Of a stretch of 64,000 nt of DNA, positions 1,058-28,888 are shown piece after piece (the first letter of the stretch is position 1; each line of letters begins with the position of its first letter). Origin of the DNA: Anaerolineae bacterium (lineage in GTDB: Bacteria; Chloroflexota; Anaerolineae; Aggregatilineales; Aggregatilineaceae). Under the pieces are notes generated by a model. It was given only the letters and a program-made list of their open reading frames with translations. It was not told where the DNA came from and did not search any database. Made by a program: the position numbers and the translations under genes. The stretch lies in assembly GCA_018432315.1 (NCBI GenBank), contig JAHDLB010000022.1, positions 12,247 to 76,246 on the forward strand, given 5' to 3'.

Positions 1058-1060
1058 GTT

Positions 1061-5502: not shown

Positions 5503-7275
5503 ATGCATGAGGGTATTTATTGGTGCGACAACTGTCAGGCTGTGTTCAAAGCAAAAACCGCGCGCCAAGTTAAAAGTGTAGCATGTGTTGATTGTGGCAA
5601 CGAATCACGCTATCTGACGACAGATGTACGTCCGGTGTTTTCGCGTGAGCGCCGGATATTGCAGTTTTACGGGCACGGGCCTTTGCTCACGGAGCAGGTT
5701 TGGCGTAGCAGTAAATCTGTTTACTACTATATTAATGGCGAGACCGTGCGGCTCCCCAGCGCCGAGACGTTGAAGGAAAATTTGCCTGCCATCGGAGACT
5801 TCATCGCCGACAGCAACCACTACGACGCAGTCGATGAGCAACTTCTTAAGATGTATCACCATCAACTCGAAATCAATCGGCCACATTTGAATAATTTGGA
5901 AGACGAGTCGTTTCAGTATATTCAACATGTCGGCAAGCGATTTCGGCGGCGGTTGTTTTTGGTATCGTTCAGCGGCGGGAAGGACTCGACAGTTGTTTCT
6001 GACCTTGTGCGACGAGCACTAGGGAGGTCCGATATTCTCCACGTCTTTGGTGACACCACTCTGGAGGACGAAAACACATACGCGTATGTACGTGATTTCC
6101 GCGAGCAGAATCCGCTGGTTCCATTCTTTGAGGCGCGCGCGGAGCACGATTTTCACGAATTGGTAGACGAAATTGGGCCCCCCAGCCGTGTGATGCGGTG
6201 GTGCTGTACGATATTCAAAGCCGGTCCCATTAACAATTTGCTGCAAACGCTCGGCGACCAAAAATGCCTCACGTTTTATGGCATCCGGCGCGATGAGTCT
6301 GTTCGCCGTAGTAACTACCAGGACCCATCCAGAAACAGCCCGGATCGCGTCGGTACGGTCATTGAACTAGATCGTGATGCTAAGGAACTCTATGGTATTC
6401 CCGCGAACGTGACCGTGGATGCGAAACTCGGTCAGCACGTCATGGCGTCACCCATTGTTGATTGGACCGAGTTTGATGTTTGGCTGTATATCTTGCTCAA
6501 CAGACTTCATTTCAACAAGTCATATCGTCTCGGTTATACCCGCGTCGGCTGCTGGTTGTGCCCCCTCAACTCGGATTGGTCAGAACTCATCGGCAGCATT
6601 TTTTTCCCAGAAGACACAGCGCGTTGGCGCGCTCAACTCCTCGATTTTGCCCAGCGCATTGGCAAACCTGATCCGGAGGAATACATCGATTCACGTGCCT
6701 GGGTGAAGCGTTTTGGCGGCGCTGGTATGCCCAATAGTTTCACTGCGCCGGAAACAAGGGCTTGTGGCGATATGGCGAATACCGTCCAGATCGAGATAGA
6801 ACGCCCGGTGAATGTGGAGCTGGAAGAGTTTCTCAAGCCCCTCGGCAAGATCAACCGAGATCGCAGTCGCGCCGCGTTGGGAGAGATCTACCTTGAAGGG
6901 CGCAAGGGTCAGAAATGGGATGCTATGATCGTCCAAGCACCCGAAAACAGCACCACACTGCGTGTCACTGTGTTGAATCCGCAAGACTCGCTAAAGAATA
7001 TTTCGGCCTACATCCGCTACCAAGCTGGCAAGTTCCAGACATGTATTCAGTGTACGGCGTGTTCTGCTGTCTGCCCGGCAGGTGCGATTACGATCAAACC
7101 GGACCAGCGGATCTACGAGATCAATCAGGATGTGTGCACCGGATGCATGGAATGTGTGACCCACTTTGGCTCAACCGGCTGTTTGGTGGCGAAGAGCTTG
7201 AGCGTTTACGGTAACTCTAAGCCGCAAGTGGCTCCCGCCGGTAACAGCGGTTTCGTTCCTATCGATTCACTGTAG
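5503..7275 (+). CDS. sspD: PAPS-reductase/DndC-like ATP pyrophosphatase with a C-terminal 4Fe-4S ferredoxin domain (SspD-type)
   Basis: 590 aa. It has an N-terminal zinc ribbon (CDNCQAV...CVDCGNE) and PP-loop SFSGGKDSTV. The C-terminal clusters CIQCTACSAVCP and CTGCMECV indicate a ferredoxin domain. Confidence 0.75.
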   Translation: MHEGIYWCDNCQAVFKAKTARQVKSVACVDCGNESRYLTTDVRPVFSRERRILQFYGHGPLLTEQVWRSSKSVYYYINGETVRLPSAETLKENLPAIGDFIADSNHYDAVDEQLLKMYHHQLEINRPHLNNLEDESFQYIQHVGKRFRRRLFLVSFSGGKDSTVVSDLVRRALGRSDILHVFGDTTLEDENTYAYVRDFREQNPLVPFFEARAEHDFHELVDEIGPPSRVMRWCCTIFKAGPINNLLQTLGDQKCLTFYGIRRDESVRRSNYQDPSRNSPDRVGTVIELDRDAKELYGIPANVTVDAKLGQHVMASPIVDWTEFDVWLYILLNRLHFNKSYRLGYTRVGCWLCPLNSDWSELIGSIFFPEDTARWRAQLLDFAQRIGKPDPEEYIDSRAWVKRFGGAGMPNSFTAPETRACGDMANTVQIEIERPVNVELEEFLKPLGKINRDRSRAALGEIYLEGRKGQKWDAMIVQAPENSTTLRVTVLNPQDSLKNISAYIRYQAGKFQTCIQCTACSAVCPAGAITIKPDQRIYEINQDVCTGCMECVTHFGSTGCLVAKSLSVYGNSKPQVAPAGNSGFVPIDSL

Positions 7276-7283
7276 GTGAACTT

Positions 7284-8234
7284 ATGTATTTCGCAAAACA
7301 TGAAACTTTCCACATTCGCGATGGCTGGCTGTATAAGGGCATGAAAGCCATTTGTGAGGACGAAAACATCTTTTTGGCAGAAGACGCGCCCGAAAGACTT
7401 GGACTTGGCAAGAACATGGTTCGTGCCTTGCGCTACTGGATGCAAGCAGTTGGGCTGTCTAGCGAAGAATTCAGCGGTGGCAAAAAAGCTCAAGCCTTGA
7501 CGCCCGTGGGCGAGCTTATCTGGATGAACGATCCCTACCTGGAACTAGAGGGAACGTTGTGGCTACTGCACCACCAGTTGATCAGCAGTGAAGAACTGGC
7601 CACGACCTGGTACTGGTTCTTTAATCACTACGTGCCCGTTGCTTTTATCTCGCGGGACTTTGTGGAAAGACTGGGGCAGTGGATCAATCTTCAACTCCCT
7701 GAAGGCGCGAACCCAGTTGCTGAAAACTCGCTGCGCAAGGATTTTGACTGCCTACTGCGCACCTATCTGCCGGGAAAAAGGGGGCAATCGCCGGAAGATG
7801 TGATGGCATCTCCGTTTACTACTTTGGGACTGCTATCATCTTTTACTGAACAAGATGAGGAATCTCGGAAGCCCATCCGTGCCTATCGGTTTGAAGCTGG
7901 GTTGCCACAGACCATCCCGCCCCTGATTTTCCTGTACATTCTCCTGAATCGTCAGGCAGAGGAGCGTCCCGGCGCAAATCAGGTGGGTCTGAATATCGTG
8001 CTACGAGAACCCAAAAACGTTGGCCGAACCTTCAATATCGGCATGTTGGCGTTGGAAGAGCTGCTCATGCGGCTGGAAGATATCCATCCGGAGTGGGCGG
8101 TGCGCCTGACTCGCACGGGGGGGCTGGATCAACTGACCTTGCCTGATGTACAGGCATTCGATGTGCTGCGCGTGTTTTATGAGGAACAGACTGTAACAGA
8201 AGAGGTCCGGCCATGGCTACAGCCACTCCACTGA
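7284..8234 (+). CDS. sspB: DUF4007-family protein (SspB-type)
   Basis: 316 aa. The N-terminus MYFAKHETFHIRDGWLYKG matches the DUF4007 signature as I remember it. It starts 9 nt after sspD. Confidence 0.65.
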   Translation: MYFAKHETFHIRDGWLYKGMKAICEDENIFLAEDAPERLGLGKNMVRALRYWMQAVGLSSEEFSGGKKAQALTPVGELIWMNDPYLELEGTLWLLHHQLISSEELATTWYWFFNHYVPVAFISRDFVERLGQWINLQLPEGANPVAENSLRKDFDCLLRTYLPGKRGQSPEDVMASPFTTLGLLSSFTEQDEESRKPIRAYRFEAGLPQTIPPLIFLYILLNRQAEERPGANQVGLNIVLREPKNVGRTFNIGMLALEELLMRLEDIHPEWAVRLTRTGGLDQLTLPDVQAFDVLRVFYEEQTVTEEVRPWLQPLH

Positions 8235-11200
8235 TTCAGACTGCATCCCGATTTCAGCGCGCGATCCACGTGCGTTATGACTTGCGCGACGCCGAAACCA
8301 TCCGGCAGTACATCCCGACCTACAGCGCAGCCAACGCCTTGTCCTCTATTCTGGTCGGCACGCGAGCCGATGGTACCCAACGTGCGCATGTGCTATACGC
8401 CGCTTACGGGTCTGGAAAATCACACTTCGCTGTCGCTCTGGCGGGATTACTTGAAAACGATGCGGCGCTGCGAGCAGCAGTGCTTCGTTTTGTCGAAAAT
8501 GTATCGGAAACAGATCAGCGGGCGGGTGATTTCGCCCATGAGTATCTTAAACGCGACATGCGCTTGTTGCCTGTCGTACTATCGGGTAACGAGGGCGACC
8601 TGACGACAGCGTTGTTGCGTGCTTTGAGCCGGTCACTACATGAGGCAGGACTGGGTGATGTTCAACTCGCAACTCGGTTTGAAGCTGCGTTGAGCATCAT
8701 TCATCGTTGGGGACAAGCCTATCCTGATGTGCTCAATCGTCTAGCTGAGATGACTCGCCAGCAAGTTGGCCTCGAACTTGAAGACCTACTCGAACAACTC
8801 GAAAGACACGATTCACAAGCTTTCGACGTCTTTGAAGACATTTATCCGCATCTAACGGGCGGTGCAACCTTTGATCCGTTCTCAGGACAGACACCGGACC
8901 TTGTATACCGCGATGTAGCTGCTCAACTTTGTGGTTTAGGTTACGATGGCCTAGTTGTGCTATGGGATGAGTTCGGGCGGTATCTGGAAGCGCGAGCATC
9001 CCAGGCATTTAGTGACGAAGCCGCACTGCTTCAGAACTTTGCGGAAGCTTGCAATTACAGTAGCGACAAACAAATGCATTTGCTGCTGCTCACTCACAAG
9101 GAACTTCAAGGCTATGCAGCCACGCTGCCGAAAACGTATCAGCAGGAATGGTCGCGCATCGAAGGTCGTTTCCAGCGTCACAATCTTTCGACCGATCCCT
9201 ACATCGCGTATCGGCTCATTGACGCTGCAATCCAGCATCCCGATGAAGCCCGTGTCGATGCTCTACTTGATGCTGAATTAGACTTTCTCGTCCGGTGGAG
9301 CCGGGAAAAGCATCTGTTTGGTGTGCTTGAAAGCGAGGCCGTCGCTCGGCTCATACGCGGGACATGGCCGCTGCATCCGCTCACGGTTTTTGCGCTCACA
9401 CATCTGTCCAACCGCGTAGCGCAAAATGAACGCACGATGTTCACTTTTTTGACCGCTGATGAGCTTCACTCCCTGAGCAATACTTTCTCTGCGATATCGT
9501 ATGACGACCCGCGCGATATCCTGGTGCGGCCAGACACTCTGTGGGACTATTTTCAAGATGCGATTCGGTCGGATATCGGTGGCACCGGCACACACCATTT
9601 TTGGTCGGGTGTGATCCATGCGCTAGACAAAGTCGCTACCGGCGATATGCTTACCGCTGCGCTGGTGAAAACGCTCGGTGTTCTGCTGGTTTGTGCTGAG
9701 TTTACAGCGGTTAAGCCCGATACAGATACGCTATGTTGGGCAGTCGGCGCGGACAGTCACGATCAGCGGGCTGCTGTCATCGCCACACTTGAGAATTTGC
9801 GTCGGCGCAAGGTGGTCATTCATCGCGAGATCGATGGATATTGGAAGTTTATCGCTGGTAGCGACATCAACTTTGAAGAGCGTTTGCATCAGGTACTCGA
9901 ACGCATCAATCCCACTTCCGCGCAACTGCGGCGCGTGTTACAGGAATACGTTCCAGCTCCGCATACTCTGGCCCGGCGTTACAACCAGGAACATGCCATG
10001 ATCCGGTACTTCACGGGCATGTATCGCTGGCCGCAGGAGATGGAAGGGACGCCATGGGATACGCAACTGGCGCGTGAACGCGCTGATGGACTTGTCATCT
10101 ATGTGTTGGCACGAGACGATGTCGATTGGGACAGGACGTTTCAGGTGTTGCAGGCTCACAATAGAGTTGTGTACGTGCTGCCACGCCGGGATGATGTGCT
10201 GGTATCGATCGAGGGGATTCTCCGTGAGTTGATCGGGCTTCAGAATATCAGCAACGACGCATCACTCAAACAACACGAAGATCGCGCACGCATCCAGCGC
10301 GAGATTGACTGGTTACTCGAAGATGCCCAGACGCGTTTGGAACGGACGATAGCTGCCCTGGTCGATCCGCGTGAAGACAAATCAGTCTGGGTTGTAGTTG
10401 ATGGCGATACGGCTCGATGTTATCCTGTTAACAGCCTAGGACAGACAACCAAAATCGTGAGTGATATTTGTGCTGAGGTGTTTCCGCAAACACCAGTCTT
10501 CAATAGCGAAGGCTTAAACGTCTATCAGCCGTCGACTCAACAACAGAGTGCCGCCCAAAAGGTCATCGATGCGTTGTTTGTCAATCCACCTAGTGAAACA
10601 TTTGGTATGGAAGGGCGAGGACCTGAAATCTTGGCCCTGAATACTCTACTCCAACTGCCGGGCATTCTGTGCCAAGACGATGACAAAGAGTGGATGATCG
10701 CTCGCCCTGATGACCACGCTCTATTGGCAGATGTGTGGGATGAAATCACTGAATACTTAGCGACTTGTCGTGTTGATCAGGGTAGGCCACTCGATCCGCT
10801 GATAGAACAGCTAACTTCGCCGCCCTACGGCCTGAGACCCGGCGTGATCCCGGTGCTCCTAGCCGCAGTTTTGCGGGACAGTCTCATCGTAACGACAGTG
10901 CGGAGAGACGGTCGTGCTGTGACACCGGTCGATGGTGCACTCTTGATTAAGGCGGTGTTTGAGCCGAATCACTACAGTTTTGAGCTAGGCGAATGGAATG
11001 AGACGCTTGAGCATTTGCGGCGAGCGCTTGAAACCCAGTTTAGTGTATACATTCATCAGAATGAACGTAATCAGCAGCCATTGACAATGCTTCAGATGTC
11101 AATGCTGCGCTGGTTGCAGAGTTTGCCGCCGTTCTGTCGAGATACCCGGCGAATATCACAGGACGCACAAGCGTTTCGGGAGCTCGTGCGAAAGGCTCAG

Positions 11201-11881
11201 TTGGAACCATCTCAGGCTCTGTTTGATGAGCTTCCAATACTGCTCCGCGTCGATGAGGCCAACGAGCTGAGCCAGATTACGGCGCGTGTTGATAGCCTCA
11301 TGACAGAGATTAGTAATGCCTATCTCGATTTGCAGCGGCGACTGGATGTGTTTGCTATCGAGGAGTTCGGACAGGGTATTCAGCAACCGGATGGGCTGAA
11401 TGCGATGCGAACCTGGATCGGACAAATTCAGGGAGTCAATGGGCGCCCGATCACCGAGTTCCGGTTCGGGTCGTTGGTTACCCAGGATTTGGTCGATACG
11501 CTCCTCGCCTCGACGAACGGTGATGGGCAGTTCTGGGATAAGGCGTCAGTCGCTGTGTTGGGTGTACAACTACGCGACTGGAATGACAACAGTGAAGAAC
11601 GCTTTTATGAGCGGCTCCGGACGGCACGTGACGAAGTAGAACGTGAAGTAAGCGAGCTGATCGAGGAAGACGCGGTCGTCGCGCTGTCGCTTCAGTTACC
11701 AAATGATCAAGCCCAGGAATACCGTTTCCGCCATTCCGATCTGTCAACACAGGGCAAGCACTTGCTCCAGAACTTCAAGTCCACACTAGATATCGCCGGA
11801 CGTCCACTTTCGATGGACGAAAAGCGCCAGATAGCCGTGGCATTTCTCACCTACGTGATGGGAGAAGATATTGACGACTGA
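8213..11881 (+). CDS. sspC: Large P-loop ATPase (SspC-type)
   Basis: 1222 aa with Walker A AAYGSGKSHF and Walker B GLVVLWDEFGRY. It overlaps sspB by 22 nt and sspA by 11 nt. Confidence 0.65.
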   Translation: MATATPLIQTASRFQRAIHVRYDLRDAETIRQYIPTYSAANALSSILVGTRADGTQRAHVLYAAYGSGKSHFAVALAGLLENDAALRAAVLRFVENVSETDQRAGDFAHEYLKRDMRLLPVVLSGNEGDLTTALLRALSRSLHEAGLGDVQLATRFEAALSIIHRWGQAYPDVLNRLAEMTRQQVGLELEDLLEQLERHDSQAFDVFEDIYPHLTGGATFDPFSGQTPDLVYRDVAAQLCGLGYDGLVVLWDEFGRYLEARASQAFSDEAALLQNFAEACNYSSDKQMHLLLLTHKELQGYAATLPKTYQQEWSRIEGRFQRHNLSTDPYIAYRLIDAAIQHPDEARVDALLDAELDFLVRWSREKHLFGVLESEAVARLIRGTWPLHPLTVFALTHLSNRVAQNERTMFTFLTADELHSLSNTFSAISYDDPRDILVRPDTLWDYFQDAIRSDIGGTGTHHFWSGVIHALDKVATGDMLTAALVKTLGVLLVCAEFTAVKPDTDTLCWAVGADSHDQRAAVIATLENLRRRKVVIHREIDGYWKFIAGSDINFEERLHQVLERINPTSAQLRRVLQEYVPAPHTLARRYNQEHAMIRYFTGMYRWPQEMEGTPWDTQLARERADGLVIYVLARDDVDWDRTFQVLQAHNRVVYVLPRRDDVLVSIEGILRELIGLQNISNDASLKQHEDRARIQREIDWLLEDAQTRLERTIAALVDPREDKSVWVVVDGDTARCYPVNSLGQTTKIVSDICAEVFPQTPVFNSEGLNVYQPSTQQQSAAQKVIDALFVNPPSETFGMEGRGPEILALNTLLQLPGILCQDDDKEWMIARPDDHALLADVWDEITEYLATCRVDQGRPLDPLIEQLTSPPYGLRPGVIPVLLAAVLRDSLIVTTVRRDGRAVTPVDGALLIKAVFEPNHYSFELGEWNETLEHLRRALETQFSVYIHQNERNQQPLTMLQMSMLRWLQSLPPFCRDTRRISQDAQAFRELVRKAQLEPSQALFDELPILLRVDEANELSQITARVDSLMTEISNAYLDLQRRLDVFAIEEFGQGIQQPDGLNAMRTWIGQIQGVNGRPITEFRFGSLVTQDLVDTLLASTNGDGQFWDKASVAVLGVQLRDWNDNSEERFYERLRTARDEVEREVSELIEEDAVVALSLQLPNDQAQEYRFRHSDLSTQGKHLLQNFKSTLDIAGRPLSMDEKRQIAVAFLTYVMGEDIDD

Positions 11882-13031
11882 GGACCGTATCATCTATCTG
11901 GACAACGCTGCGACGACGTTTCCCAAACCCGAAGTGGTCTATCAAACGATGGACCACTTTTACCGAAATTTCGGAGGCAACGCTGGACGCGGTTCCAATC
12001 CGCTGGCTCGCAAAGCTGCTACTCTGGTCGAGGAAACGCGATCGTTACTTAGGTCGTGGCTTGACGCTCCCGAAGTCATCTTCCAACCATCTGCAACGAT
12101 TGCACTCAATACGGCAATCCTGGGAGCGGGTTTGAGTGCGGGGGACATCGTGTATGTTTCCCCGTTTGAGCATAACTCGGTTTTGCGGCCACTTGAGCAT
12201 CTTCGCCAGACAGTAGGCATTCAAATAGAAGTGCTGCCATTTGATAGGCAGACGCTCGAATGCAAGCTCGACGAAGTGAAAGCCCTGTTTCGGCTCGATC
12301 CCCCGGCGATGGTGTGCGTGTCCTTGGTGAGTAATGTGCTTGGTCTGATACTGCCAGTTGGCAAGATTTGCCAGTTTGCCAAGCAGATTTCTTCTCGTGC
12401 AATAACCATCGTTGACGGTGCGCAGGCCGCAGGGTTGATCCCAGTTGATATGGTTCACGTAGATGCCCTGGTTTTTTCTGGACATAAATCGTTGTACGGA
12501 CCCTACGGGATCGCGGGAATTACATTTGGTACAGACTGGCGGCCCTCCCCAGTCATTCGAGGCGGAACTGGTACCCAGTCTGAAAGCATCGATATGCCAC
12601 TCGACGGGCCATCTCGATTTGAGGCTGGAAGTCAGAATATAGCGGCTGTTGCGGGCTTAAAAGCGGCACTTGAGTGGCTAGGCCAAACCGGGCAAGATAG
12701 CATTTGTAGGCATTCGCAGGAACTTTCCGCTCTGCTCTATGAGACGCTAGTTCAGTACCCCCGTGTCGTAGTTCATTTTCCTGCTGATCACAAGAAACAT
12801 TTTGGATCAATCTCATTTTCGGTTGATGGGGTTATGCCCCAAGCAGTTGAAACGGCGCTGGGGTCCAGCGGCGTTGCTGTTCGAGCAGGGCTTCATTGTG
12901 CGCCTTGGTGCCATGAGTTTATCGGCACAATGGCAGCGGGTGGAACGACGAGAGTGAGCGTTGGCCATTTCACCGACGAAAACGACGTCGCTGAATTTGC
13001 TACCAAGTTCGATAAGATAGTTCGTGGATAA
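11871..13031 (+). CDS. sspA: Cysteine desulfurase, class V aminotransferase (SspA-type)
   Basis: 386 aa with IIYLDNAATTFPKP at the N-terminus, the PLP-lysine motif VFSGHKSLYGPYG and the active-site Cys in RAGLHCAPW. Confidence 0.85.
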   Translation: MTTEDRIIYLDNAATTFPKPEVVYQTMDHFYRNFGGNAGRGSNPLARKAATLVEETRSLLRSWLDAPEVIFQPSATIALNTAILGAGLSAGDIVYVSPFEHNSVLRPLEHLRQTVGIQIEVLPFDRQTLECKLDEVKALFRLDPPAMVCVSLVSNVLGLILPVGKICQFAKQISSRAITIVDGAQAAGLIPVDMVHVDALVFSGHKSLYGPYGIAGITFGTDWRPSPVIRGGTGTQSESIDMPLDGPSRFEAGSQNIAAVAGLKAALEWLGQTGQDSICRHSQELSALLYETLVQYPRVVVHFPADHKKHFGSISFSVDGVMPQAVETALGSSGVAVRAGLHCAPWCHEFIGTMAAGGTTRVSVGHFTDENDVAEFATKFDKIVRG

Positions 13032-13099: not shown

Positions 13100-14086
13100 T
13101 CATACTCGACGGAACACTTCAGAATATCGAGGGATTGAATGTTCGTATCTGGTTGGCAAAAAGGCTATCAACCACCGCATCAGAGTTTGCCAGGCTCGGT
13201 CACCGTCAAAACTTGTCATTTGAGCACATGGTAACGACGCCAACAATTGCACAACGGCGCCGAAGCGCTGAGATTCACTCACATAATCATCCACTTGCTT
13301 GATAATTGGAAACTGCAACAACAGCGTTCCCACGTATTGTTCAAATTGCTCGCCACTCAACCCGGTTGGGACATCTAGGAAGGATAGATCAGATAAAGCT
13401 GACTCTCTGGCTGCAGCAGTGAGATCATCAAACCTGCCCTGGTAGGCCACGAATAGTTTTTCAGGTGACCTCAAGGTTGGAATCCAGGCTTCACGCTTCA
13501 TTCGAGGGTACGACGTTTCAGATTCAGTTTGAGGCAGATTCTGCTGTGTGTTGACGGAGGGACGGAAATCGGCTGAACGCAGTGCATCTGCCATCGTTTT
13601 AGCCCGGTCAAAAACATCTTGATCGATCTCAACACAACCCTCAAGCAATTCCCGCTCGAATTTGATCAACATGTCATCATGAGCAGTAGCGATCAGCAGT
13701 TCTAGGTTTGGGTTTCTCGTCCAGCCCAGTGCAGTTAATGTCAGATTTGCTGATCCAATCAAGCAGTGACGATCTGCTCGATAGTACTTCGCGTGCAGAT
13801 CGTTTCTTAACCAAAGCGATGACTGGTTCCGCGTTTGCAGGAAGGGCCAAATCTCAATATCGCTCACACCAGAGGCAATTTCCTCTGGCCGCCAGCGCGT
13901 AACGCATGTTATGCTTACGTCTTTAGCCGCACTTTCGAGCAGGCGCTTCAGCGCCTGCAACTTGATGAATGGCGCGACAAGTAGTAATTCGCACTTCGCT
14001 TGTTGACAAAGCGTTTCCAACTGATAGCCAGGGTTGTTCACTGATTTCCGTTCCGCCTCAGCACATCTTTTAGTCGACGCCCCCAA
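13100..14086 (-). CDS. Single-HKD phospholipase-D-family nuclease
   Basis: HKD motif LHAKYYRADRHCLIGSANLT (HxKx4Dx5GSxN). The likely true start is GTG at 14041, which overlaps the upstream TGA as GTGA. Confidence 0.75.
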   Translation of the reverse strand: MGASTKRCAEAERKSVNNPGYQLETLCQQAKCELLLVAPFIKLQALKRLLESAAKDVSITCVTRWRPEEIASGVSDIEIWPFLQTRNQSSLWLRNDLHAKYYRADRHCLIGSANLTLTALGWTRNPNLELLIATAHDDMLIKFERELLEGCVEIDQDVFDRAKTMADALRSADFRPSVNTQQNLPQTESETSYPRMKREAWIPTLRSPEKLFVAYQGRFDDLTAAARESALSDLSFLDVPTGLSGEQFEQYVGTLLLQFPIIKQVDDYVSESQRFGAVVQLLASLPCAQMTSFDGDRAWQTLMRWLIAFLPTRYEHSIPRYSEVFRRV

Positions 14087-15810
14087 CCACTACGTGCGTC
14101 TTCCGTTCTTTCTCGGACCCTTCGAGACGGTTGGTTTTCTTCAAATTCCGCCCAAGCTATAAGTAGCAACTTCATTGTCTCACCAGCATCAAACGGTTTT
14201 TGTCCTTGTGGCGTAACCGACTTGCCATTGCTCGATGGCTCAATCAGATCCATTACTCGCGCATAGATAGGATGATTAGAGTTGATTATTATGTTGGCAA
14301 CGTTGCCTTCGTTTTTGATTGCAAAGAACGAGTGATCATCTATCTCTGCCGACGAAAAAACATAGTGTATGCCACAATCAATTGTTATGGCATGAAGATT
14401 GTCTTCACTATCGGATTGAGCACCCAGGCTACTATGTCGATTTGATATAGGCTGCCCGTCGGCTTTTTGCAGTAGTTGAGGCTGAAGGTATTCGCCCATT
14501 TCCAACTCGTCGTGCGGGGAACTCTCGTGTCCTGTCTCTTTTTCTCCTGGTAGTTCCTGGAGAGATGGCTGGACGTTCGTTTGTGTGCTGGTCGCGTGTG
14601 GCTCGTGGTTCTGGTCGCGTTTCCTCAAATGGTATACGTACACAGGCGCGAGCGTAGTGTGTGCTGGGGGTTCTTCAGGTTCAGCCAATATGTGTTGCTG
14701 CCTAAGAGTTTGAAGTTGTTCGTATATATCACGATGATGAACTGCTACACCGAGCCGCCTGGTCAACGCCCCCTGCAGTTCTCCGATAGTGGCGGTTTCA
14801 CGTTGACCCAGAAACTCTAGTATTGTTTCCCGAATCTGATCGGGTGTGACGGCGGGTTTTTCCTTTGTTCTGGGGTCTTGCCCATCCATCTTCTTCAGTC
14901 GAAACATTAAGACGGGATGTTGAGGTGTACTCGATGCGTGTGGTTCTGGGCGTGCGAGAAAGCCCGCTTTATGAAGCCCTCTCAGCGCTTGGTTTATTTG
15001 GGTGGGATCAATCCTGTGATCATATATCCGTGCTAACTCGTCTACCAAATCCCGCGACGTGATCATCTCAGAATTCTCAAGAATCCTCATGATACATTCC
15101 GACAGATCCGATTCCAGATGGGGTAACTGTAGCTCGACGTTTTCGTGTTCTTCTGCTGCTGGTTTTGCAGCAAGTTCGTATATGAATATTGGCTGTCGAG
15201 TCGTGCTGTCTGGGTGCTCATGAGGTTCTATGACCACCTTTTTCCCCCTCAGAATTTTCAGGTGTTCATAGATGGTAAGCCCGGTGGACCGAATCCCTTG
15301 CACAGCGAGTGCGTCCACAAGCTCGGCTACTGTGGCAGATCGAAGCTCCTGAAGAGCATTGATGATGTGTTGCTCAAGATCGTATTGTTGTGGCAGTTGT
15401 CTAACCTGAGGTTTTTCGTTTGCCGCTTCGTGTCTGTTGTCAACATCTGTGTCGATTAACTTTGGGCGACTGGCATCAACAATTGGTTCTCCAGCATCGG
15501 CTTGAGCATTGGATTCGATATCCATCCAGTGCATGTGCGAGGCATTATCATAGTAGAAGTGGGTGCGCCCTTCTCGATGAAGCACGCTGTTCACGAGCGA
15601 TTTGTCTACTACGACTCCTCGGTTGGCTAACCCAACAGTGATCTGCCGACTCATGCGTGGCTGTCCGTCAGCCAGTATTTGCCGAATGTGATTCAGAATT
15701 TCCAGGCGCACGGTAAGATCGTCGTCTGCTTGGCGGTTGCCCCATGAGCGCAACAATTTCATACTTGATGTCACTCCTGCCGCATGAAATCGCGGGCTAT
15801 TTTCCCCCAA
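14038..15810 (-). CDS. Protein with four tandem winged-helix-like modules and a C-terminal domain paralogous to the C-terminus of the adjacent GHKL ATPase
   Basis: Three clear repeats share the pattern I..xL....xT..ELvdxL......IYExLxxLRxxxxxxEPxx(8-10)P[IV]x[IMV][YF]xL (aa 143-213, 233-305, 322-395), plus a more divergent first copy (aa 33-88). The C-terminal 130 aa align with aa 478-606 of ORF 15771..17591. The likely true start is ATG 15762, preceded by AGGAG. Confidence 0.6.
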   Translation of the reverse strand: MGENSPRFHAAGVTSSMKLLRSWGNRQADDDLTVRLEILNHIRQILADGQPRMSRQITVGLANRGVVVDKSLVNSVLHREGRTHFYYDNASHMHWMDIESNAQADAGEPIVDASRPKLIDTDVDNRHEAANEKPQVRQLPQQYDLEQHIINALQELRSATVAELVDALAVQGIRSTGLTIYEHLKILRGKKVVIEPHEHPDSTTRQPIFIYELAAKPAAEEHENVELQLPHLESDLSECIMRILENSEMITSRDLVDELARIYDHRIDPTQINQALRGLHKAGFLARPEPHASSTPQHPVLMFRLKKMDGQDPRTKEKPAVTPDQIRETILEFLGQRETATIGELQGALTRRLGVAVHHRDIYEQLQTLRQQHILAEPEEPPAHTTLAPVYVYHLRKRDQNHEPHATSTQTNVQPSLQELPGEKETGHESSPHDELEMGEYLQPQLLQKADGQPISNRHSSLGAQSDSEDNLHAITIDCGIHYVFSSAEIDDHSFFAIKNEGNVANIIINSNHPIYARVMDLIEPSSNGKSVTPQGQKPFDAGETMKLLLIAWAEFEENQPSRRVRERTEDARSGWGRRLKDVLRRNGNQ

Positions 15811-17591
15811 TCGGTACGTGCGTCTTGTGTACGTTCACGCGGGACTCCGTCGAGTTGTTCATCTTCATAGCGTGCCCAGGCTAGCAGTAACAGTTTCAGC
15901 CCCTTGCTAGCTCTTTGAAGACGAGACTGCAATGTCTCTATATCTTCTTCATCCTCAATGTCACCGGTTTCGAGCACTTCCAGTAACTGCTCGTAGGCGG
16001 GGTGATTGACATTAAGCAGTACCGTGATTACGCCGCCTTTTGGCCGAACTGTGAAAAATGCTGAACCTTCGAGATCTGCCACATCGAAAATGTACTTGAG
16101 ACCACTGTCAATAGTGAATGCGGCAAGCTCCTCAGCGTCTTTCTCTGGAATACCACTTGCAACTAGTGTTTCCTGGACCTGTATCTTGCGCTCCTGAACG
16201 GGCAGTGTTCTTTCTTCTTCATCGCTATGGCTGACATGCCCTTCATCACGCCGCCGCTGGGTGGCTTCTGTAGCAATCGCTGGCGGGCTTGACGGATCAG
16301 AGTGACGAGATCGCCGCTCTCGCTCACCACTTTTTTGGGCTGCAATCTGCCGACGCATCATGCGGATGTTCTTGTCGATTCGTTGCGTTATCTCATATAG
16401 CGGCAAGCGGGGGTCCTCGGCAGCTTCCAGTTCAGCTATAGTATCTTCAAACACTTGGTCTTCGGTTGCAATCATCCGTGCAATATCAGAGAAGTTTCTA
16501 GCAGACTGCTTGTTGTTCGTGACGCCGAAGAGATCATCCAGTGCCGGCGGAAAATCGATTTCGACCCCCCACCAGCGTTCGCGAGGATCGTAAGGGACAG
16601 CCCATGCTGCATCCAGCTCGAGTTCTCGATCTGCTCGCATGAGCGAAACTCCTACGTTTCTTTTGGCATGTTTGCCGTGTGGCTTGCTGCCCGCCTGAGC
16701 GCCGCTTCGGGCCTCTTCGGTCGCGATAGAAAACCGGATAATCACTTCTTGCTGTTCTCCACGAAAGCTGACAATGGGTCTGACTTCGTAGCTTTCTGGT
16801 GCTGGCCACGGCATGAACATAGGCTGCTTGTCAAAGGGGGCTGGACAGGAGGTTTCGGCCATCAGGTAACAGGGATCATTAGGGTGTGCGGCCTTCTCCG
16901 TCAATATGTTTGTGGGATTGTCCACATCAAAAGTTTTGAAAAGAATGGTTGTTCTGCCCTGAGTAATGAAGCGACGGTATATGCGTCCCACCAGTTCTTC
17001 GGAGTTATGGATGATTGCTCGTGATGTTTTCCAAAGGCAGCGATCGATCCCTGACCAGACAACAAGTGTTCCAGCGCTTTCAAAGGAGTTTGTTACGTCG
17101 AGCCATATGTTCGGAATATCGCGATAAGCTGGTTTGGGAATGCGGGTCAGAGTTCCTTCCTCGATTTCATCTAGATCCAGATAGGTATGTAGCAGCGTGT
17201 CGGGCCCGTTCGTCCAAGACCACACATCGACGCGGCGACACTGGGAAATCGATGAGGAAGGCAAGCCCATACCGAAACGGCCAATTCCCGTATGGTTCCT
17301 GGGATCTAGATACAGACCATTTCCAAACTGAAGCGCCATGTGCAGCACTTCAGCATCCATTCCACTGCCGTTGTCGAGAACCGCTATTCGATCAATACGA
17401 GAGCGTGAACGTTGGTCGACGATATCTGTTTTGTCTCCACATAAAATCTCTACACGTGAGGCTTCTGCCTGGATGGCGTTATCTACCAGTTCAGCTAGGG
17501 CGTATGCCGCGTTTTTGTAGCCACTGTCCCGCATGGCTTTGATGGCTAGGCTGGCGGGGATAATGTCGTGTTCTTCTGCTTGATTTGTCAT
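15771..17591 (-). CDS. GHKL-superfamily (MORC/HATPase_c_3-like) ATPase
   Basis: 606 aa with N-box ALAELVDNAIQA, G1 box VLDNGSGMD and G2 box GRFGMGLPSS. The start lies 3 nt after the helicase stop. Confidence 0.75.
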   Translation of the reverse strand: MTNQAEEHDIIPASLAIKAMRDSGYKNAAYALAELVDNAIQAEASRVEILCGDKTDIVDQRSRSRIDRIAVLDNGSGMDAEVLHMALQFGNGLYLDPRNHTGIGRFGMGLPSSSISQCRRVDVWSWTNGPDTLLHTYLDLDEIEEGTLTRIPKPAYRDIPNIWLDVTNSFESAGTLVVWSGIDRCLWKTSRAIIHNSEELVGRIYRRFITQGRTTILFKTFDVDNPTNILTEKAAHPNDPCYLMAETSCPAPFDKQPMFMPWPAPESYEVRPIVSFRGEQQEVIIRFSIATEEARSGAQAGSKPHGKHAKRNVGVSLMRADRELELDAAWAVPYDPRERWWGVEIDFPPALDDLFGVTNNKQSARNFSDIARMIATEDQVFEDTIAELEAAEDPRLPLYEITQRIDKNIRMMRRQIAAQKSGERERRSRHSDPSSPPAIATEATQRRRDEGHVSHSDEEERTLPVQERKIQVQETLVASGIPEKDAEELAAFTIDSGLKYIFDVADLEGSAFFTVRPKGGVITVLLNVNHPAYEQLLEVLETGDIEDEEDIETLQSRLQRASKGLKLLLLAWARYEDEQLDGVPRERTQDARTDWGKIARDFMRQE

Positions 17592-17593
17592 GT

Positions 17594-19201
17594 TTAGTCT
17601 TCCCAGACGTCTTCCCAGTTGTAGAAAGCTTCGGCAAAACTCCCAAACCCAGGGAGTTGTTGATCAACGACTGTTACAATTTCTGCGGCTTCGTTCCCAC
17701 CTGCGCGTGTTCCGCGCATAGCGCGGCCTACCATCTGGCTGTAGAGCACCAACGATTTTGTTGGGCGTGCGATTAGAGCAGCACTCGTTCGGGGAGCATC
17801 AAACCCCGTAGTCAAAACACCATAATTGCAAAGCACTTTGGGAGTGTCTTCCGGATTCATATAGTCTGCGATGATGCGAGTTCTAGTGCTGGAAGGGGTG
17901 CTGCCTGTCACGGAATAAGCCTGAATGCCTCTGGCCTGAAGGATAGCCGCGATTAAATCCGCATGTTCGACAGTCGTCGCAAACAAAAGGATACGGCTGT
18001 GTTGTTTGACGAGGCTTTCAACTTCCAACACAATCCGGAGATTTCGTTGATCGTCAGCGGCTAGCTGCTTCAGAATGCTAGGTGGGATGTCCAACAACGT
18101 TTCTAGCTGTCTGAGATCGGCATCCGATAGTTCTAAGCCGCTATTGTGAAACAGCGGGCGGAAGCTCGCTCTAGCCAAATAACCTTCGTGAATAAGGTAT
18201 TCAACCGGGTTATCAAAACCAGCAACTTTCAGAGTTACTTTGCGTCTTGCAAAAAATCTGGATAGTTGCTCGTCTGCTTCAATATCTGCCCAAGTACGGC
18301 CCGGTGTAGCAGTTAGACCAAGTAACGCAGTGTGGGGAAACGGGATAACTAGAGAGTCCAAGACCAGTTGATAGGTTTCTGCTACAGCCATATGTGCTTC
18401 GTCGATAATCACGAGCGAACAGTGCTGACCGAGAGTACCGATTTTTCGAATGCTTTGCTTCAGTAAGTTATAGAGTTTGGCGAGACCTGCAACGACAATA
18501 CCGTCTTTGACCTGTGCTAAATCAAGTTCGTAGTCTCCCCAAAAACGGTGAACCGAGATGGATCTATCTCCAAGTTGTTTCCAGGTCCGTTCAAACTCGC
18601 TTGCCGCCTGTTCACACAACTCTTCGCTGTAAGCGAGCCAAACCACAACCGTTGGTTCTGTAGCGCGGAGATGATCGGAAATGATCGACATCGCCGTCCG
18701 CGTCTTACCCGATCCTGTGGGCATGTGCAGCATTACACGGTGCGGCGGTTCTGTTAGCTGAATCTTAATTTCCCTTGCGGCCTGACGTTGATGTACGAAC
18801 AGTCCATAAGAAGAATCGAGAACCGTTGTACTGGGCGGTTGATCAACCACTTCTTCACGCGGAATAGACAAACCAAAGAAGTCGAAAAGGATCTGTTCGC
18901 GCTCAGAACCATGACGAAAACGAGCCTGTCTTAATGCCGCGTAATTATCAGTGCCATCAAGCCCTAACACTATACGCAAGCTTTCAGCTTCTTTGGGTCG
19001 CAAAAAATCAAACAGGATCCTTCTATCCTCAGGGGATAATAACAAGCCTGCCCGTGTTCGCAGATTCACGACTAGGTTGCGCAACTCACTAGGTGACATT
19101 AGTTTCGGATCAAGATGCATCAATAGCCGCACAGCATCGCCACCTACGAGCTTTTGCAGCGTTTCATCATCGAGTCGGGACAGAAGATTATCAAAATCCA
19201 A
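17594..19201 (-). CDS. SF2 DEAH-box helicase (ResIII-type)
   Basis: 535 aa with motif I HMPTGSGKTRTA, motif II VIIDEAHMAV, motif III LTATPGR and motif VI QMVGRAMRG. It is the first gene of the four-gene minus-strand operon. Confidence 0.85.
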   Translation of the reverse strand: MDFDNLLSRLDDETLQKLVGGDAVRLLMHLDPKLMSPSELRNLVVNLRTRAGLLLSPEDRRILFDFLRPKEAESLRIVLGLDGTDNYAALRQARFRHGSEREQILFDFFGLSIPREEVVDQPPSTTVLDSSYGLFVHQRQAAREIKIQLTEPPHRVMLHMPTGSGKTRTAMSIISDHLRATEPTVVVWLAYSEELCEQAASEFERTWKQLGDRSISVHRFWGDYELDLAQVKDGIVVAGLAKLYNLLKQSIRKIGTLGQHCSLVIIDEAHMAVAETYQLVLDSLVIPFPHTALLGLTATPGRTWADIEADEQLSRFFARRKVTLKVAGFDNPVEYLIHEGYLARASFRPLFHNSGLELSDADLRQLETLLDIPPSILKQLAADDQRNLRIVLEVESLVKQHSRILLFATTVEHADLIAAILQARGIQAYSVTGSTPSSTRTRIIADYMNPEDTPKVLCNYGVLTTGFDAPRTSAALIARPTKSLVLYSQMVGRAMRGTRAGGNEAAEIVTVVDQQLPGFGSFAEAFYNWEDVWED

Positions 19202-21779: not shown

Positions 21780-24700
21780 GTGTGCGCACGTCTCACCTCT
21801 ATCGAATTGGGAGGATACTATCCGGCCCCACGGGATCAACTCCCCGCTATTGCTTCGTTATTCGCGCCAGCATCCAACGGCGGGCGTCTGCTCGATCCGT
21901 GCGCGGGTGAAGGCGAAGCGCTGCATTATCTGGCTGAAGCGTGGCAGCTGACGCCCTACGCCAATGAACTCGACACCGACCGCGCCGCCGCGTGCCAGAC
22001 ATTGTTTGGCCCGATTCAGGCCGTGCAGGGAGATCTCTACACTTTGCGCGCTTCGTTGGGCAGCTTCAACGCGGTGTGGTGCAATCCGCCGTACACCTGG
22101 GATGTAACCAACAAGGACGACAAGCGGCGTGAGCTTGGAATGCTCAAGCACAGCTGGAAATGGCTGGCTCCTGGCGGGTATATGGCATGGGTGGTTTATG
22201 GACACCACGTGACCCCGGATGCGGCGGCATTTCTGGCCAAACACTGCAAGACCGTCGATGTGTGGCGGCTGCCAGGGCTGCATCTGGGCGAGTATGTCCA
22301 TGTTGTGGTGGTCGCGCAGGAAGGCATACCACCCGATGAACCGGCCCAGTTCGCACAGCGTATTCTGCAAGACGCGGCCAATCCCCGTGAGCTGACCGTG
22401 CAAGACACACCACTCTACACCTTCCCACAACCACGCACCACCCGCCGCTTTGTGTTCGCTCCGAAAGTCATCACACCGGAACTTGCGTTACAGGCGGTTC
22501 AGGCGGATGGCGCGCAGTTTGGCGCAGGTTTTCAACGGCTGCTGGAGCCACCCCCACCGGTCGAGAACGTGCGTCCGGTGGTGCGGCCACGCGGTGGACA
22601 GTTGGCCCTGGTGTTAGCGGCGGGCTTGTTCAACGGCATTGTCGTGCAGACCGACGAAGGTCGCGCAGCCGTGCGCAGTACGGTCGAGCCGGTCGAGCAA
22701 CTGGTCGAAGGTGGCGAGATTGATGAGGCCGACGAAACCACAACCGAACGTGAGGTATATCGCACACGCCCGCAGGTAACGATCACGCTGCTGAACGAGC
22801 AGGGCGAGATCACCGACATGAGCGGCGATGCGGCACTGGTGGACTTTATCGGGCGGCATAAAACGGCTTTGCTAGGTTATCTGGATGAGCATTTTTCGCC
22901 CCTCTATGACTTCGAGTACAGCCAACTCGCGCCCATCCTGGATCGAGTGCGGCTCAAGGGTAACCGGCTCTATGAGACGCAAAAACACGTCACCGCAGCA
23001 GCATACACGGCCCTGCAACAGCGCAAAGGCGTCATCGTCGTGGGCGAGCCGGGTGTCGGCAAGACGGTGGTTGGTGCAACCCTGGCGATTGCCTTACGTC
23101 CGCACATGAGACCGGACCAGGTCGCGATCGTGATGGCACCGCCTCATCTGACCGGCAAATGGCAGCGCGAGGTCGAGATGGTCGCCCGTTCGGTGGGCAC
23201 GCGCGTTCACGCGAAGGTGCTCAAGAATGTGGACGACGTGCGGGCGTTCATGGACGCCAATCTGCCCATGACACTCAAGATCGGCATCATCCCGCGCGAG
23301 ATGGCGAAGCTCGGCGAGGGCTGGGAACCGGCGGTCCATTGGCGCACAGTGCGCACGGCACGCTGGGGGTATGGCGAACCGCGACCGGAAAACCTGACGG
23401 GTGACCGCATTCTGACGACGAAAGTTCCCCTCTGCCCGAACTGCAACGCGACCATCACCCGCAATAAAAACGGTGAGGCGATCATCGCCGATGAGAAGTG
23501 GCTGGGACGCGCACCGCAGAAGTGCCCGGCTTGCGGTGGGGCGTTGTGGCAGCATTCGCGCACGTTTTCGGCTCCCAAGCCCGGTGAGAAGTACCCCAAA
23601 CGCAACCCGCGTATGCCGTTGGCTGACTACATCGCCACTGTGTTCCCGAATCGCGTGTACCTGTACGAGTGCGACGAAATCCACGAAGCGAAGTCAACCA
23701 GCACCGACCAGGGCGCGGCCATGATGAAACTGGCGCAGACCGCTGAAAAGGTTGTTGGGCTGACCGGCACACTCTACGGCGGCGTTGCGTCGTCGCTGTA
23801 CGGGTTGCAGTTCGTCTTCAATCCGCGTGTGCGGCTGAACTACCCCTGGGGCGTCAAAGGCCAGGCCGGGTGGGTGCGCGACATGGGAGCGCTGGAACGG
23901 ATTGTAGAGTACCGCCCGGAGTACGACAAGGGCGGGCACTACACCGGCAAACGGCGCGTTGAGCACAAACCGAAGGAAGCGCCGGGCTGCTCCCCGCTCC
24001 TGGTGCGCGAAATCATCGATCACACGGTTTTTGTCGGGTTGCAAGACATCGGGCGCGATATGCCGGAGTTTGAAGAAATCCCGGTCCCTATCCCGATGGA
24101 TGCCGACATGGAGCTGCACTACAACCGCGCCAAGGACAAGATGAACACCTACCTGTTCCAGTGCCGGATGGAAGGCGACGCGAGTTTCCTCGGACGTTAC
24201 CTGCAAACACTGCTGGCCTGGCCGACTGCACCGTTCCGGAGCGAGAAGGTGATCCACAAACGCCGCTTTGACCGTGAGAGCGATCAGTTCATCGAAATCC
24301 CGGTGCATGACATGCCGGGTTTGAGCGAAGACCGGCTGTATCCCAAAGAAGAATGGCTGGTCGAACTGGTGCGTGATGAGCTGGCCCAGGGCCGCAACGT
24401 TGGCGTGTTTCTGCGTCAGACAGGCACCAGAGATATACAGCCGCGCATCGAACGCATCATCCGCGAGCATATTCCTGACGCACGACCGTATGTACTCAAG
24501 GGCAGCGTGGCTCCGGAACGCCGCGAGAGCCTGGTGCAGCAGCAGCTGGATGCAGGCATCAATGTGCTGGTGTGTAATCCTCGCTTGGTCCAGACCGGCC
24601 TCGACCTGGTGGCTTTCCCGACGTTGGTGTTCCTGGAACCGGATTACAGCTTGTTCGTGATGGGACAGGCGTCCCGGCGGGCGTGGCGTATCATCCAGGA

Positions 24701-28260: not shown

Positions 28261-28888
28261 GTTTTACAGTTTTGGCGTACTGCTGCGAAAGCGCGAAGGT
28301 GATGCTGTGACGGAGTATGCGGTTGATCCCGAACAAATCGCCCTGGCACTGGCCGCGAAAGTGACCTTTGATACTGGACTGCTGACTGGCGACACGCTGC
28401 TGGTCCGGCAGGATGGGGTCAAGCGGTTGGTGGTCGAATACCGCCGCCCACAGAAGACCGGTATCTTCATCGAAGGTTCTGAAACACCTTTGCGCGTGCC
28501 GATGCCGCCGCTGGTGCTCATCCGCACGACCACCGAAAACAAGAACCCGCAGTATCAGGTCTACGCGGTCAAGGAACGTCCGGCTGCGTTGGATGCGCCG
28601 CTGTTTCATGCGCCCCTGCCAAACGTCTTCAGTTCCGGCAGTATTTGCTGGGGCAGCGTGCAGCGAGTGGGCGACGCCGCACTCCAGACGAGTTCACTGG
28701 CCGCAGACTGGGATGCACTTCTCGGATCCCCGTTTGGCAATCATGCCGTAAACGGCAAATCGCGATCCCATCCGCACGACATCCGGCAGAAACTGGTTGA
28801 ACTGGAAGCGCGCAAGGCACGGGTATATCCGAAATCAGACCTCATTCCGGTCAAGCGCACGCTGGCTCAAGCGATTGGAGATGCATGA
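28190..28888 (+). CDS. E2/UBC-like protein (PRTRC protein B-like)
   Basis: 232 aa. FHAPLPNVFSSGSICWG resembles the HPN...C active-site region of ubiquitin-conjugating enzymes. Its stop overlaps the ThiF-like start (ATGATGA). Confidence 0.5.
   Translation: MTTLDFTGPRLTAALQEQPSLTLEFYSFGVLLRKREGDAVTEYAVDPEQIALALAAKVTFDTGLLTGDTLLVRQDGVKRLVVEYRRPQKTGIFIEGSETPLRVPMPPLVLIRTTTENKNPQYQVYAVKERPAALDAPLFHAPLPNVFSSGSICWGSVQRVGDAALQTSSLAADWDALLGSPFGNHAVNGKSRSHPHDIRQKLVELEARKARVYPKSDLIPVKRTLAQAIGDA

Follow-up and report, generated by a model that had tools for sequence, protein, structure and literature searches.

Which effector, if any, works together with the Ssp-type genes for phosphorothioate (PT) modification of DNA in an Anaerolineae bacterium? 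The question is raised by a 64,000-nucleotide stretch of its contig JAHDLB010000022.1, the whole of which was analyzed and is hereafter termed the window. Here, four translationally coupled genes of the minus strand (13100-19201) run convergently towards an sspD-B-C-A cluster. We named these genes A (helicase), B (GHKL ATPase), C (putative winged-helix-array protein) and D (PLD nuclease), and we use the term triad for the combination of helicase, GHKL ATPase and nuclease. In the study of SspFGH, 83.9% of 2,678 sspBCD loci were without SspE and SspFGH, and other restriction partners were asked for (PMC8092258). Our comparison of related loci shows that the conserved unit is the triad and not the quartet, and the triad constitutes a concrete, widespread and clonable candidate partner for sspBCD loci that have neither SspE nor SspFGH. 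We favor, with a probability of roughly 0.55, the reading that the operon would be the effector half of a PT-based, ATP-dependent defense resembling restriction-modification; for the overall coupling of the module to PT, the odds may be put at slightly better than even.

The four-gene operon

Gene A (17594..19201, minus strand, like the other three) starts with a TTG at 19201, ends with a TAA at 17596-17594 and encodes a superfamily 2 (SF2) helicase of 535 amino acids (aa). Gene B (15771..17591) extends from an ATG at 17591 to a TGA at 15773-15771 and encodes a MORC-type GHKL ATPase of 606 aa, and gene C (14038..15762), with an ATG at 15762 and a TGA at 14040-14038, encodes a putative accessory adaptor of 574 aa. 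Gene D (13100..14041), which starts with a GTG at 14041, encodes a single-HKD nuclease of the PLD family with 313 aa; its start codon and the stop codon of gene C share the sequence GTGA (14041-14038). The four open reading frames (ORFs) and every coupled junction had already been described in the original prediction, made from the sequence alone, and they were recovered from the ORF translations of the window and the letters at the junctions, as well as by independent gene calls on the public contig of identical sequence, which gave the same four products (535, 606, 574 and 313 aa). One detail has to be corrected. An AGGAG does precede the ATG at 15762, but it does not follow the stop codon of the GHKL gene, as had been claimed; it is located at 15778-15774, inside the last codons of gene B and upstream of the B stop. 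The proposed convergence on phosphorothioation genes was borne out, the flanking genes being those of SspD, SspB, SspC and SspA.

Linkage of the triad to ssp genes

Relatives of B are numerous. More than 4,500 clusters of the protein collection match at E <= 1e-5, the nearest of them with about 55% identity over the full length and mostly from cyanobacteria, and 409 genomes belonging to many phyla (one genome scanned per species) contain a B relative. The locus counts given in this work refer to the best 80 loci with a B relative and to a full-flank subset, the 44 loci in which both flanks extend over 9 kb or more. A helicase gene is adjacent to the B relative and co-directional with it in 72 of the 80 loci, a PLD homolog comes next in 43, and at least one of SspB, SspC and SspD is encoded in 57. 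When only the full-flank subset is considered, SspB, SspC or SspD is found within 10 kb in 36 of the 44 loci (binomial P = 2e-47 against the background of ~3% of genomes with sspBCD, PMC12914056). Additionally, among plasmids, 10 of the 12 records with a B homolog of at least 40% identity also carry SspB, compared with 96 of 72,556 records overall (P = 7e-28). Homologous operons are therefore enriched near modification genes, contrary to an objection that the original prediction had anticipated. Conservation of the quartet beside ssp genes, a check that it had suggested, was found for the helicase, GHKL and nuclease core, which is strongly linked to them, but not for the quartet itself, as no C-like gene other than B is present in the 80 loci.

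The commonest gene order, with all genes on one strand, is SspB-SspC-SspD-helicase-GHKL-PLD-SspA, in which the triad is interleaved between sspD and sspA. The convergent layout of the window also occurs in L055, L056, L057, L065, L067, L068 and L074. In L067, the Ssp proteins are 68-84% identical to those of the window and the A, B and D proteins only 53-59%, and gene C is missing. Two Ssp lineages that differ in SspD accompany the triad: in one, SspD is short (266 aa), and in the other it is a long SspD-ferredoxin as in the window. Both co-directional and convergent layouts are observed. Cyanobacteria, Bacteroidota, Alphaproteobacteria, Chloroflexota and others all have loci with this association.

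Several plasmids illustrate the arrangement. On Anabaena variabilis plasmid A (L084, NC_007410.1 324041-340533), a PT-associated putative methyltransferase lies upstream, and the order continues with DUF4007, SspC, PAPS reductase, a DndB-like protein, helicase, ATP-binding protein, PLD and cysteine desulfurase (SspA). A Hymenobacter plasmid has SspB-C-D followed by helicase, GHKL and PLD. On an Agrobacterium tumefaciens plasmid (NZ_CP039925.1 353848-375149, L085/L086), a string of helicase, GHKL, endonuclease, SspF, SspG and SspH is convergent on SspA-B-C-D; the helicase-GHKL pair is 42% identical to that of the window, and the triad and a characterised PT effector can thus be encoded together in one string of genes. 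What lies between sspD and the helicase differs among loci: the position is occupied by a 768-aa DndB-annotated protein in A. variabilis, L001, L009 and L021, and by a 239-aa protein together with a 536-aa ORC/CDC6-like ATPase in L015 (5951-8300) and L058.

The interleaving of the triad between sspD and sspA, the recurrence of the association across phyla and with two Ssp lineages, and the plasmid co-occurrence all speak against the main rival explanation, according to which the triad would be an autonomous MORC-helicase-nuclease system for restriction or abortive infection that does not read PT and has come to lie beside ssp genes by defense-gene clustering or co-travel. This explanation, which we consider unlikely, can draw on the published prediction that operons of MORC, SF2 helicase and nuclease are restriction systems, mostly paired with methylases (PMC2292703); in the loci examined here, however, no methylase or other partner recurs in the way that ssp does.

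Triads without ssp genes and the variable nuclease slot

The third slot of the triad contains a PLD gene in most loci, a PD-(D/E)xK nuclease gene in Microcoleus and a gene for another endonuclease on the Agrobacterium plasmid. Because the slot accepts different nucleases, we argue that the third gene would be the cutting component. The helicase-GHKL pair is followed by a 202-aa PD-(D/E)xK nuclease in L039 (8370-12614, Microcoleus vaginatus HSN003) and in L013. L039 has full flanks, its neighbors are of the housekeeping type (histidine kinases, a cation efflux protein), and no ssp gene lies within 10 kb. Such stand-alone triads, in Microcoleus and at other loci, are what an autonomous system would predict, and so are the orientation of the window operon, which is its own, and the location of the window operon in a defense island on a mobile element, with QatABCD adjacent.

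In 19 of the 80 loci, mostly from Nostocales (L002, L014, L017, L019, L023, L028, L033 and others), a gene for a 462-aa protein with HTH_3 and Cas9-type HNH_4 domains is found directly upstream of a helicase ORF from which the first ~177 residues, Walker A included, are gone (for example L019 7388-9996). The break point is near-identical in the five loci examined closely (helicase residues ~177-182), the GHKL gene is preserved, and 15 of the 19 loci have no PLD gene. The HNH protein was considered as a swapped-in nuclease and set aside, because the helicase ORF is without its 5' third, including Walker A, and the loci are possibly rearranged or decayed; they do not count as evidence here. The arrangement may have arisen through a mobile insertion, or it may represent a derived variant that is functional.

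Helicase, GHKL ATPase and PLD nuclease

All motifs quoted in the original prediction are present, namely PTGSGKT, DEAH, TATPGR and QMVGRAMRG in the helicase and ELVDNAIQA, DNGSGMD and GRFGMGL in the GHKL protein, and its assignment of the three enzymes to SF2 helicases, GHKL ATPases and single-HKD PLD proteins agrees with Pfam (ResIII, DEAD and Helicase_C; HATPase_c_3; and PLDc_2, the last below its cutoff). The A protein begins with a domain of ~125 aa without assigned function, which is followed by a RecA1/RecA2 core (aa ~129-513) containing the Walker A lysine K166 and the DEAH sequence at 267-270. Its Pfam scores are 81.5 bits for ResIII, 56.9 for DEAD and 47.6 for Helicase_C, and across 58 homologs conservation reaches 90% or more at motifs I, II, III, V and VI. 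The best relatives by PDB sequence are RadD and SauUSI (7clg), the latter a PLD-helicase restriction enzyme, and RadD is also the best NCBIfam relative. The best PADLOC match is PbeA (83 bits), at profile positions 248-435 of 672, which correspond to the helicase core only.

In the B protein, a GHKL and putative S5-like transducer region (aa ~12-375) is connected by a helical linker to the C-terminal domain (aa ~487-605, nt 15777-16133). It matches Pfam HATPase_c_3 with 74 bits, and its PDB sequence matches are MORC2, MORC3 and MORC4. An AlphaFold model built with 20 homologs (predicted local distance difference test, pLDDT, 74.9) was used for a Foldseek search, in which the top matches were MORC2, SMCHD1, MORC3, Hsp90 and MutL-N; ~390-460 residues can be aligned to MORC2, MORC3, SMCHD1 and MutL-N, but with template modeling (TM) scores of only 0.3-0.5. 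Positions E34, N38, D73, G75 and G77, the G102-G109 loop and G174-T175 are invariant in the 20 homologs, and the GHKL ATP-binding motifs of the prokaryotic MORC family (Iyer et al. 2008) are intact in B according to this alignment and the HATPase_c_3 match. When the segment GVSLMRADREL was compared by eye with the MORC S5 motif GhXhhpXXRhl (PMC2292703), all positions fitted but one, where E replaces a hydrophobic residue. Sequence matches and model point to B as a predicted GHKL ATPase of the MORC kind with a probably MORC/MutL-like fold. A similarity to MzaB (PADLOC 65 bits, NCBIfam 79 bits) covers only ~200 N-terminal residues. The C-terminal domain of ~120 residues is common to B (15777-16133), C (14053-14424) and a group of small adaptors described below; its invariant positions are F, N..H, WA..E and R..WG, and profile searches revealed no Pfam relative and no PDB sequence relative.

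The HKD motif of the D protein, H83-K85-D90...G96-S97-A98-N99 (nt 13745-13795), is read in the translation as HAKYYRAD...GSAN, and the C-terminal ~160 aa form a conserved domain to which no function is assigned. Across 35 homologs, conservation of 90% or more was found for the H, the K, GSAN and positions of the C-terminal domain. The Pfam match to PLDc_2 (24.2 bits) is under the cutoff of 27; partial PADLOC matches to ZacB and DrmC (28 bits for DrmC) and an NCBIfam match to DrmC (30 bits vs a cutoff of 133) were also obtained.

The relationship of A to the repair helicase RadD and the resemblance of B to MutL, together with the embedding of the module in a modification operon in most loci, might suggest that the module aids modification or repair, either by loading, moving or recycling the Ssp complex or by repairing SspB nicks. 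We regard such a role as very improbable, given that the nuclease slot is interchangeable, which is a hallmark of defense effectors, that D has DrmC-like matches, that the distribution is patchy, cross-phylum and inclusive of plasmids, and that Ssp modification works without genes A-D in the systems studied (PMC8092258).

The putative adaptor encoded by gene C

Gene C had been taken for a non-catalytic paralogue. A full-length relationship to the GHKL protein was rejected, since the similarity is confined to the final ~125 residues: the C-terminal domain of C (aa ~447-570, nt 14053-14424) is homologous to that of B (E 5e-23). The remainder is predicted to contain an R1-type winged helix (aa 14-85, nt 15508-15723) and a tandem of further repeats, R2-R4 (aa ~126-385, nt 14608-15387). 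The Pfam winged-helix matches are weak (MCM4_WHD 25.5 bits vs a cutoff of 24.4), a single-sequence AlphaFold model (pLDDT 42 overall, ~80 for R4) predicts three helices and then strands for every repeat, and the repeat profile matches winged helices of the PDB, namely those of MCM4, ZBP1 Z-alpha, RTP and ArgR, with E values of 0.005-0.05. From these weak matches, the poor model and the marginal profile matches, the repeats are assigned to winged helices at the level of fold class only. The single-sequence model was too poor for a fold search. The similarity of the repeats to Z-DNA-binding domains is marginal (E ~0.01) and does not exceed that to the winged helices of MCM4, RTP and ArgR, and an hhalign comparison of the repeats with SspB gave no match.

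A word-index search with C retrieved the protein itself as the sole match. An exhaustive HMMER search of 1.84 billion representatives detected two relatives with a four-unit array (P0122 and P0123, 32-34% identity); their C-terminus, a region of ~300 residues, differs from that of C, and one of them adjoins an 878-aa protein with sigma-70 regions 2 and 4 (L083 484-5359). The same search also yielded proteins of ~215-300 aa that consist of one or two R1-type winged helices and a B-type C-terminal domain. One of these, P0135 (215 aa, L082), is encoded between a GHKL gene (53% identity) and a PLD gene (44%), downstream of a helicase gene (57%), so that the gene order of L082 (helicase, GHKL, adaptor, PLD) is the same as in the window. 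On the basis of these sequence relationships, we regard C as a putative adaptor of enlarged size, belonging to a class that is minor but recurs, and as a lineage-specific accessory of the triad. The shared C-terminal domain and the adaptors that possess it suggest a plug-in route by which DNA-binding modules may be added.

The R1 winged helix, with the motif GQPR..RQI....L...G..VDK.LVNSVL..EGR..F.YD, is without a Pfam model. R1-type winged helices (P0124-P0141) also occur in tandem in small proteins, and an R1 winged helix was further observed in two defense-type contexts, namely in a BrxD-like ATPase, where it is N-terminal, and in a DUF4011/SF1-helicase/REase_MTES_1575 protein of 1951 aa.

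Comparison with known systems

The PT-coupled effectors known so far are DndFGH, SspE, SspFGH, PbeABCD and DndI. Whether the operon is a four-gene variant of SspFGH or an undescribed system had been left open by the original prediction. The profile searches gave no full-length membership in SspE, SspFGH, DndFGH or PbeABCD and place the operon outside them; no PT-linked or module-specific model of PADLOC v2 or NCBIfam fits the module, the match to PbeA being confined to the helicase core.

SspE, like the module proposed here, is an Ssp-coupled nuclease effector, but it is a single protein of other folds; its DUF262 NTPase and DUF1524 HNH-type nuclease domains were not matched by Pfam or PADLOC in A-D or the neighboring genes, and nothing SspE-like was present among the neighboring genes checked, in line with what had been claimed. 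PADLOC matches to SspE, SspF, SspG or SspH were found neither on A-D nor in the neighboring genes checked. The SspF and SspG models were validated on the Agrobacterium control locus L085, where they scored 787 and 726 bits, and they gave nothing on the window proteins. SspFGH is similar to the module in being a multi-gene effector beside sspBCD, and one triad relative is found in the same string as SspF-G-H. It differs in content, with a Walker A in SspF, an FtsK-like SspH and no helicase, GHKL or PLD component (PMC8092258). For DndFGH, in which DndG has a triple winged helix and DndH is HerA/FtsK-like, the PADLOC output for A-D contained no DndF, DndG or DndH match, although the Dnd model content of the library was not separately confirmed.

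PbeABCD (PMC6459918, re-annotated in PMC10853773) is likewise PT-associated and combines an HKD nuclease with an SF2 helicase. In PbeA, however, the two are fused (PMC10853773), whereas they are encoded by separate genes in the window, and PbeB, PbeC and PbeD were not found among A-D or their neighbors. Pbe is a CxC ABC ATPase system coupled to DndCDEA; the window has no CxC ABC ATPase (PbeC), no DndE cognate (PbeD) and no small PbeB, Pbe systems have no GHKL ATPase, and Pbe is paired with Dnd whereas the window module is paired with Ssp. SauUSI and the DISARM protein DrmC also resemble the module in that a PLD-family nuclease works with an SF2 helicase, as reflected in the matches of A to SauUSI and of D to the DrmC profiles. 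SauUSI is nevertheless a single-chain, modification-dependent enzyme, and DISARM, in which DrmC is an accessory, requires the helicase DrmA, DrmB (DUF1998) and a methylase, none of which is present at the window operon; DISARM was rejected, as D gives only weak DrmC matches and DrmA and DrmB were not matched by PADLOC or NCBIfam. MzaB of mzaABCDE has an N-terminal GHKL domain in common with B, and Mza was rejected as well, since the match is at the domain level and far under the NCBIfam cutoff of 850 and no other Mza gene is present.

The closest precedent is a prediction. Iyer, Abhiman and Aravind (2008, PMC2292703) described GHKL + S5 MORC ATPases encoded beside an SF2 helicase and a nuclease, possibly of the HKD type, in operons that were predicted to be restriction-modification systems and whose distribution is patchy and shaped by horizontal transfer, as is that of the triad. 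Their neighborhood of SF2 helicase and nuclease is borne out by the loci analyzed here, with the helicase in 72 of 80 and a nuclease (PLD, PD-DExK or other) downstream, and their species list includes Anabaena variabilis, whose plasmid A carries a module of the window type. The general theme of MORC, SF2 helicase and nuclease is therefore already known as a prediction. The published operons differ in that the MORCs are paired mainly with DNA methylases and the helicases are Rad25-like, SWI2/SNF2 or of a third type; the paper does not mention phosphorothioation, DUF4007 or PAPS reductase, and it contains no description of a winged-helix adaptor or of the C-terminal domain common to B and C (PMC2292703). 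An experimental test of the 2008 prediction with this partner set was not found in the literature searched. In the same literature, the coverage of which is incomplete, we found no description of Ssp paired with a helicase-MORC-PLD triad, of the shared C-terminal domain or of the adaptor class, and none of the three was found in the reappraisals of PT and BREX systems (PMC10853773, PMC12839542) or in an analysis of sspD neighborhoods (PMC12914056). The pairing of the triad with Ssp is thus likely to be new to the literature.

Proposed function

The coupled junctions, the conserved catalytic motifs of the three enzymes and the linkage to ssp are the observations that support the reading of the operon as a PT-coupled effector, and the following mechanism can be proposed for it. 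SspABCD would write PT marks on the host DNA, as has been shown for Ssp homologs elsewhere, and the helicase, the MORC-type GHKL ATPase and the PLD nuclease would form an ATP-dependent machine acting on DNA. In this machine, the GHKL protein may serve as an ATP-gated dimeric clamp held by its C-terminal domain, and the SF2 helicase may supply translocation or unwinding. In single-HKD nucleases such as Nuc and BfiI, two protomers form one active site, and for this reason the closure of a MORC-like dimer or the collision of translocating complexes could gate cutting; cutting by the nuclease would then follow the closing of the complex or the encounter of two complexes. Self and non-self would be told apart through the PT marks or through the SspB-SspC recognition complex, in parallel to the specificity subunit of type I restriction systems, which is common to the modifying and the cutting enzymes. 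Where it is present, C would dock through its copy of the C-terminal domain of B, and its four winged helices might add DNA binding or target selection.

Several points weigh against this proposal. Pfam and PADLOC identified no DUF262/ParB-like or other PT-reading domain in A-D, and the window operon is convergent on ssp, not co-transcribed with it. Canonical SspABCD works with SspE or SspFGH and without the triad (PMC8092258). At some loci, SspFGH or a DndB-like gene is found alongside the triad, which is therefore no simple substitute for them. Eight of the 44 full-flank loci, including L039 of Microcoleus, are without an ssp gene within 10 kb, and the triad may therefore be able to work alone and need not depend strictly on phosphorothioation. 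For B and its C-terminal domain, the roles in clamping and dimerisation are suggested by analogy, and the domain is the one that has neither a Pfam nor a PDB relative. Finally, little confidence can be placed in the model of C (pLDDT 42).

As to the direction of the response, we tentatively favor an attack on PT-free DNA, as carried out by DndFGH and SspFGH, over an action stimulated by PT. A PT-activated module similar to SspE, in which the PT marks of the host would switch on the ATPase and the nuclease against incoming DNA, is in our view quite unlikely. Among Ssp systems, SspE is a precedent (PMC8092258, PMC13251355), the single strand and the low density of Ssp marks fit sensing better than blanket protection, and the winged-helix array of C, whose R1 type is known from other defense proteins, could contain the readers. 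On the other hand, no PT-sensing domain of the DUF262/ParB-like kind was found, a second sensor would be redundant at those loci where a DndB-like gene accompanies the triad, and unmarked DNA is the typical target of the helicase-nuclease machines of type I, type III and Pbe systems.

A broader proposal, which we put forward tentatively and at somewhat less than even odds, is that the triad would be a third class of PT-coupled restriction effector, present in roughly a tenth of Ssp systems and accounting for part of the ~84% of orphan sspBCD loci, in which MORC clamps are gated by backbone modification and adaptors of the C type retarget them. The figure of a tenth is based on the at least 10 of 96 SspB-bearing plasmids that carry the triad. 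If true, this would be a prokaryotic counterpart of MORC-mediated epigenetic silencing, and it would give a first functional context to the prokaryotic MORC ATPases that the 2008 prediction placed in restriction systems.

Genomic context of the operon

The phosphorothioation writer module SspD-B-C-A (5503..13031, plus strand) was recognized by PADLOC, and also from the NCBIfam results and the Pfam labels of the public contig. SspD (5503-7275) is of the long form, with a PAPS reductase and a 4Fe-4S ferredoxin, and scored 297 bits with the PADLOC model of BrxP and 45 bits with that of SspD. It is followed by SspB (7284-8234, DUF4007, 226 bits), SspC (8213-11881, 479 bits) and the cysteine desulfurase SspA (11871-13031, 133 bits). 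On the other side of the ssp genes, a complete QatABCD system is located on the minus strand (323-5162), with PADLOC scores of 367 bits for QatA, 282 for QatC and 201 for QatD in addition to QatB; in NCBIfam, QatC is over its curated cutoff (314 vs 280) and QatA is under it (432 vs 600). A scan for promoters and terminators gave a number of sites no higher than in shuffled sequence.

The G+C content is 45-53% in the first 20 kb of the window and ~60% further on. The genes of the latter part include, in order, a large methyltransferase-helicase of 1162 aa, with a DUF6094 methyltransferase and an SNF2/ZorD-like C-terminal region (21780-25268, plus strand), an E1/ThiF-like gene (28885-29670), a type IV secretion coupling protein gene (33442-35463), a topoisomerase gene (41088-42962, minus strand) and a serine recombinase gene (61791-63827). 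The low-G+C defense island (1-20 kb), which comprises ssp, QatABCD and the operon, appears to be cargo of a conjugative element.

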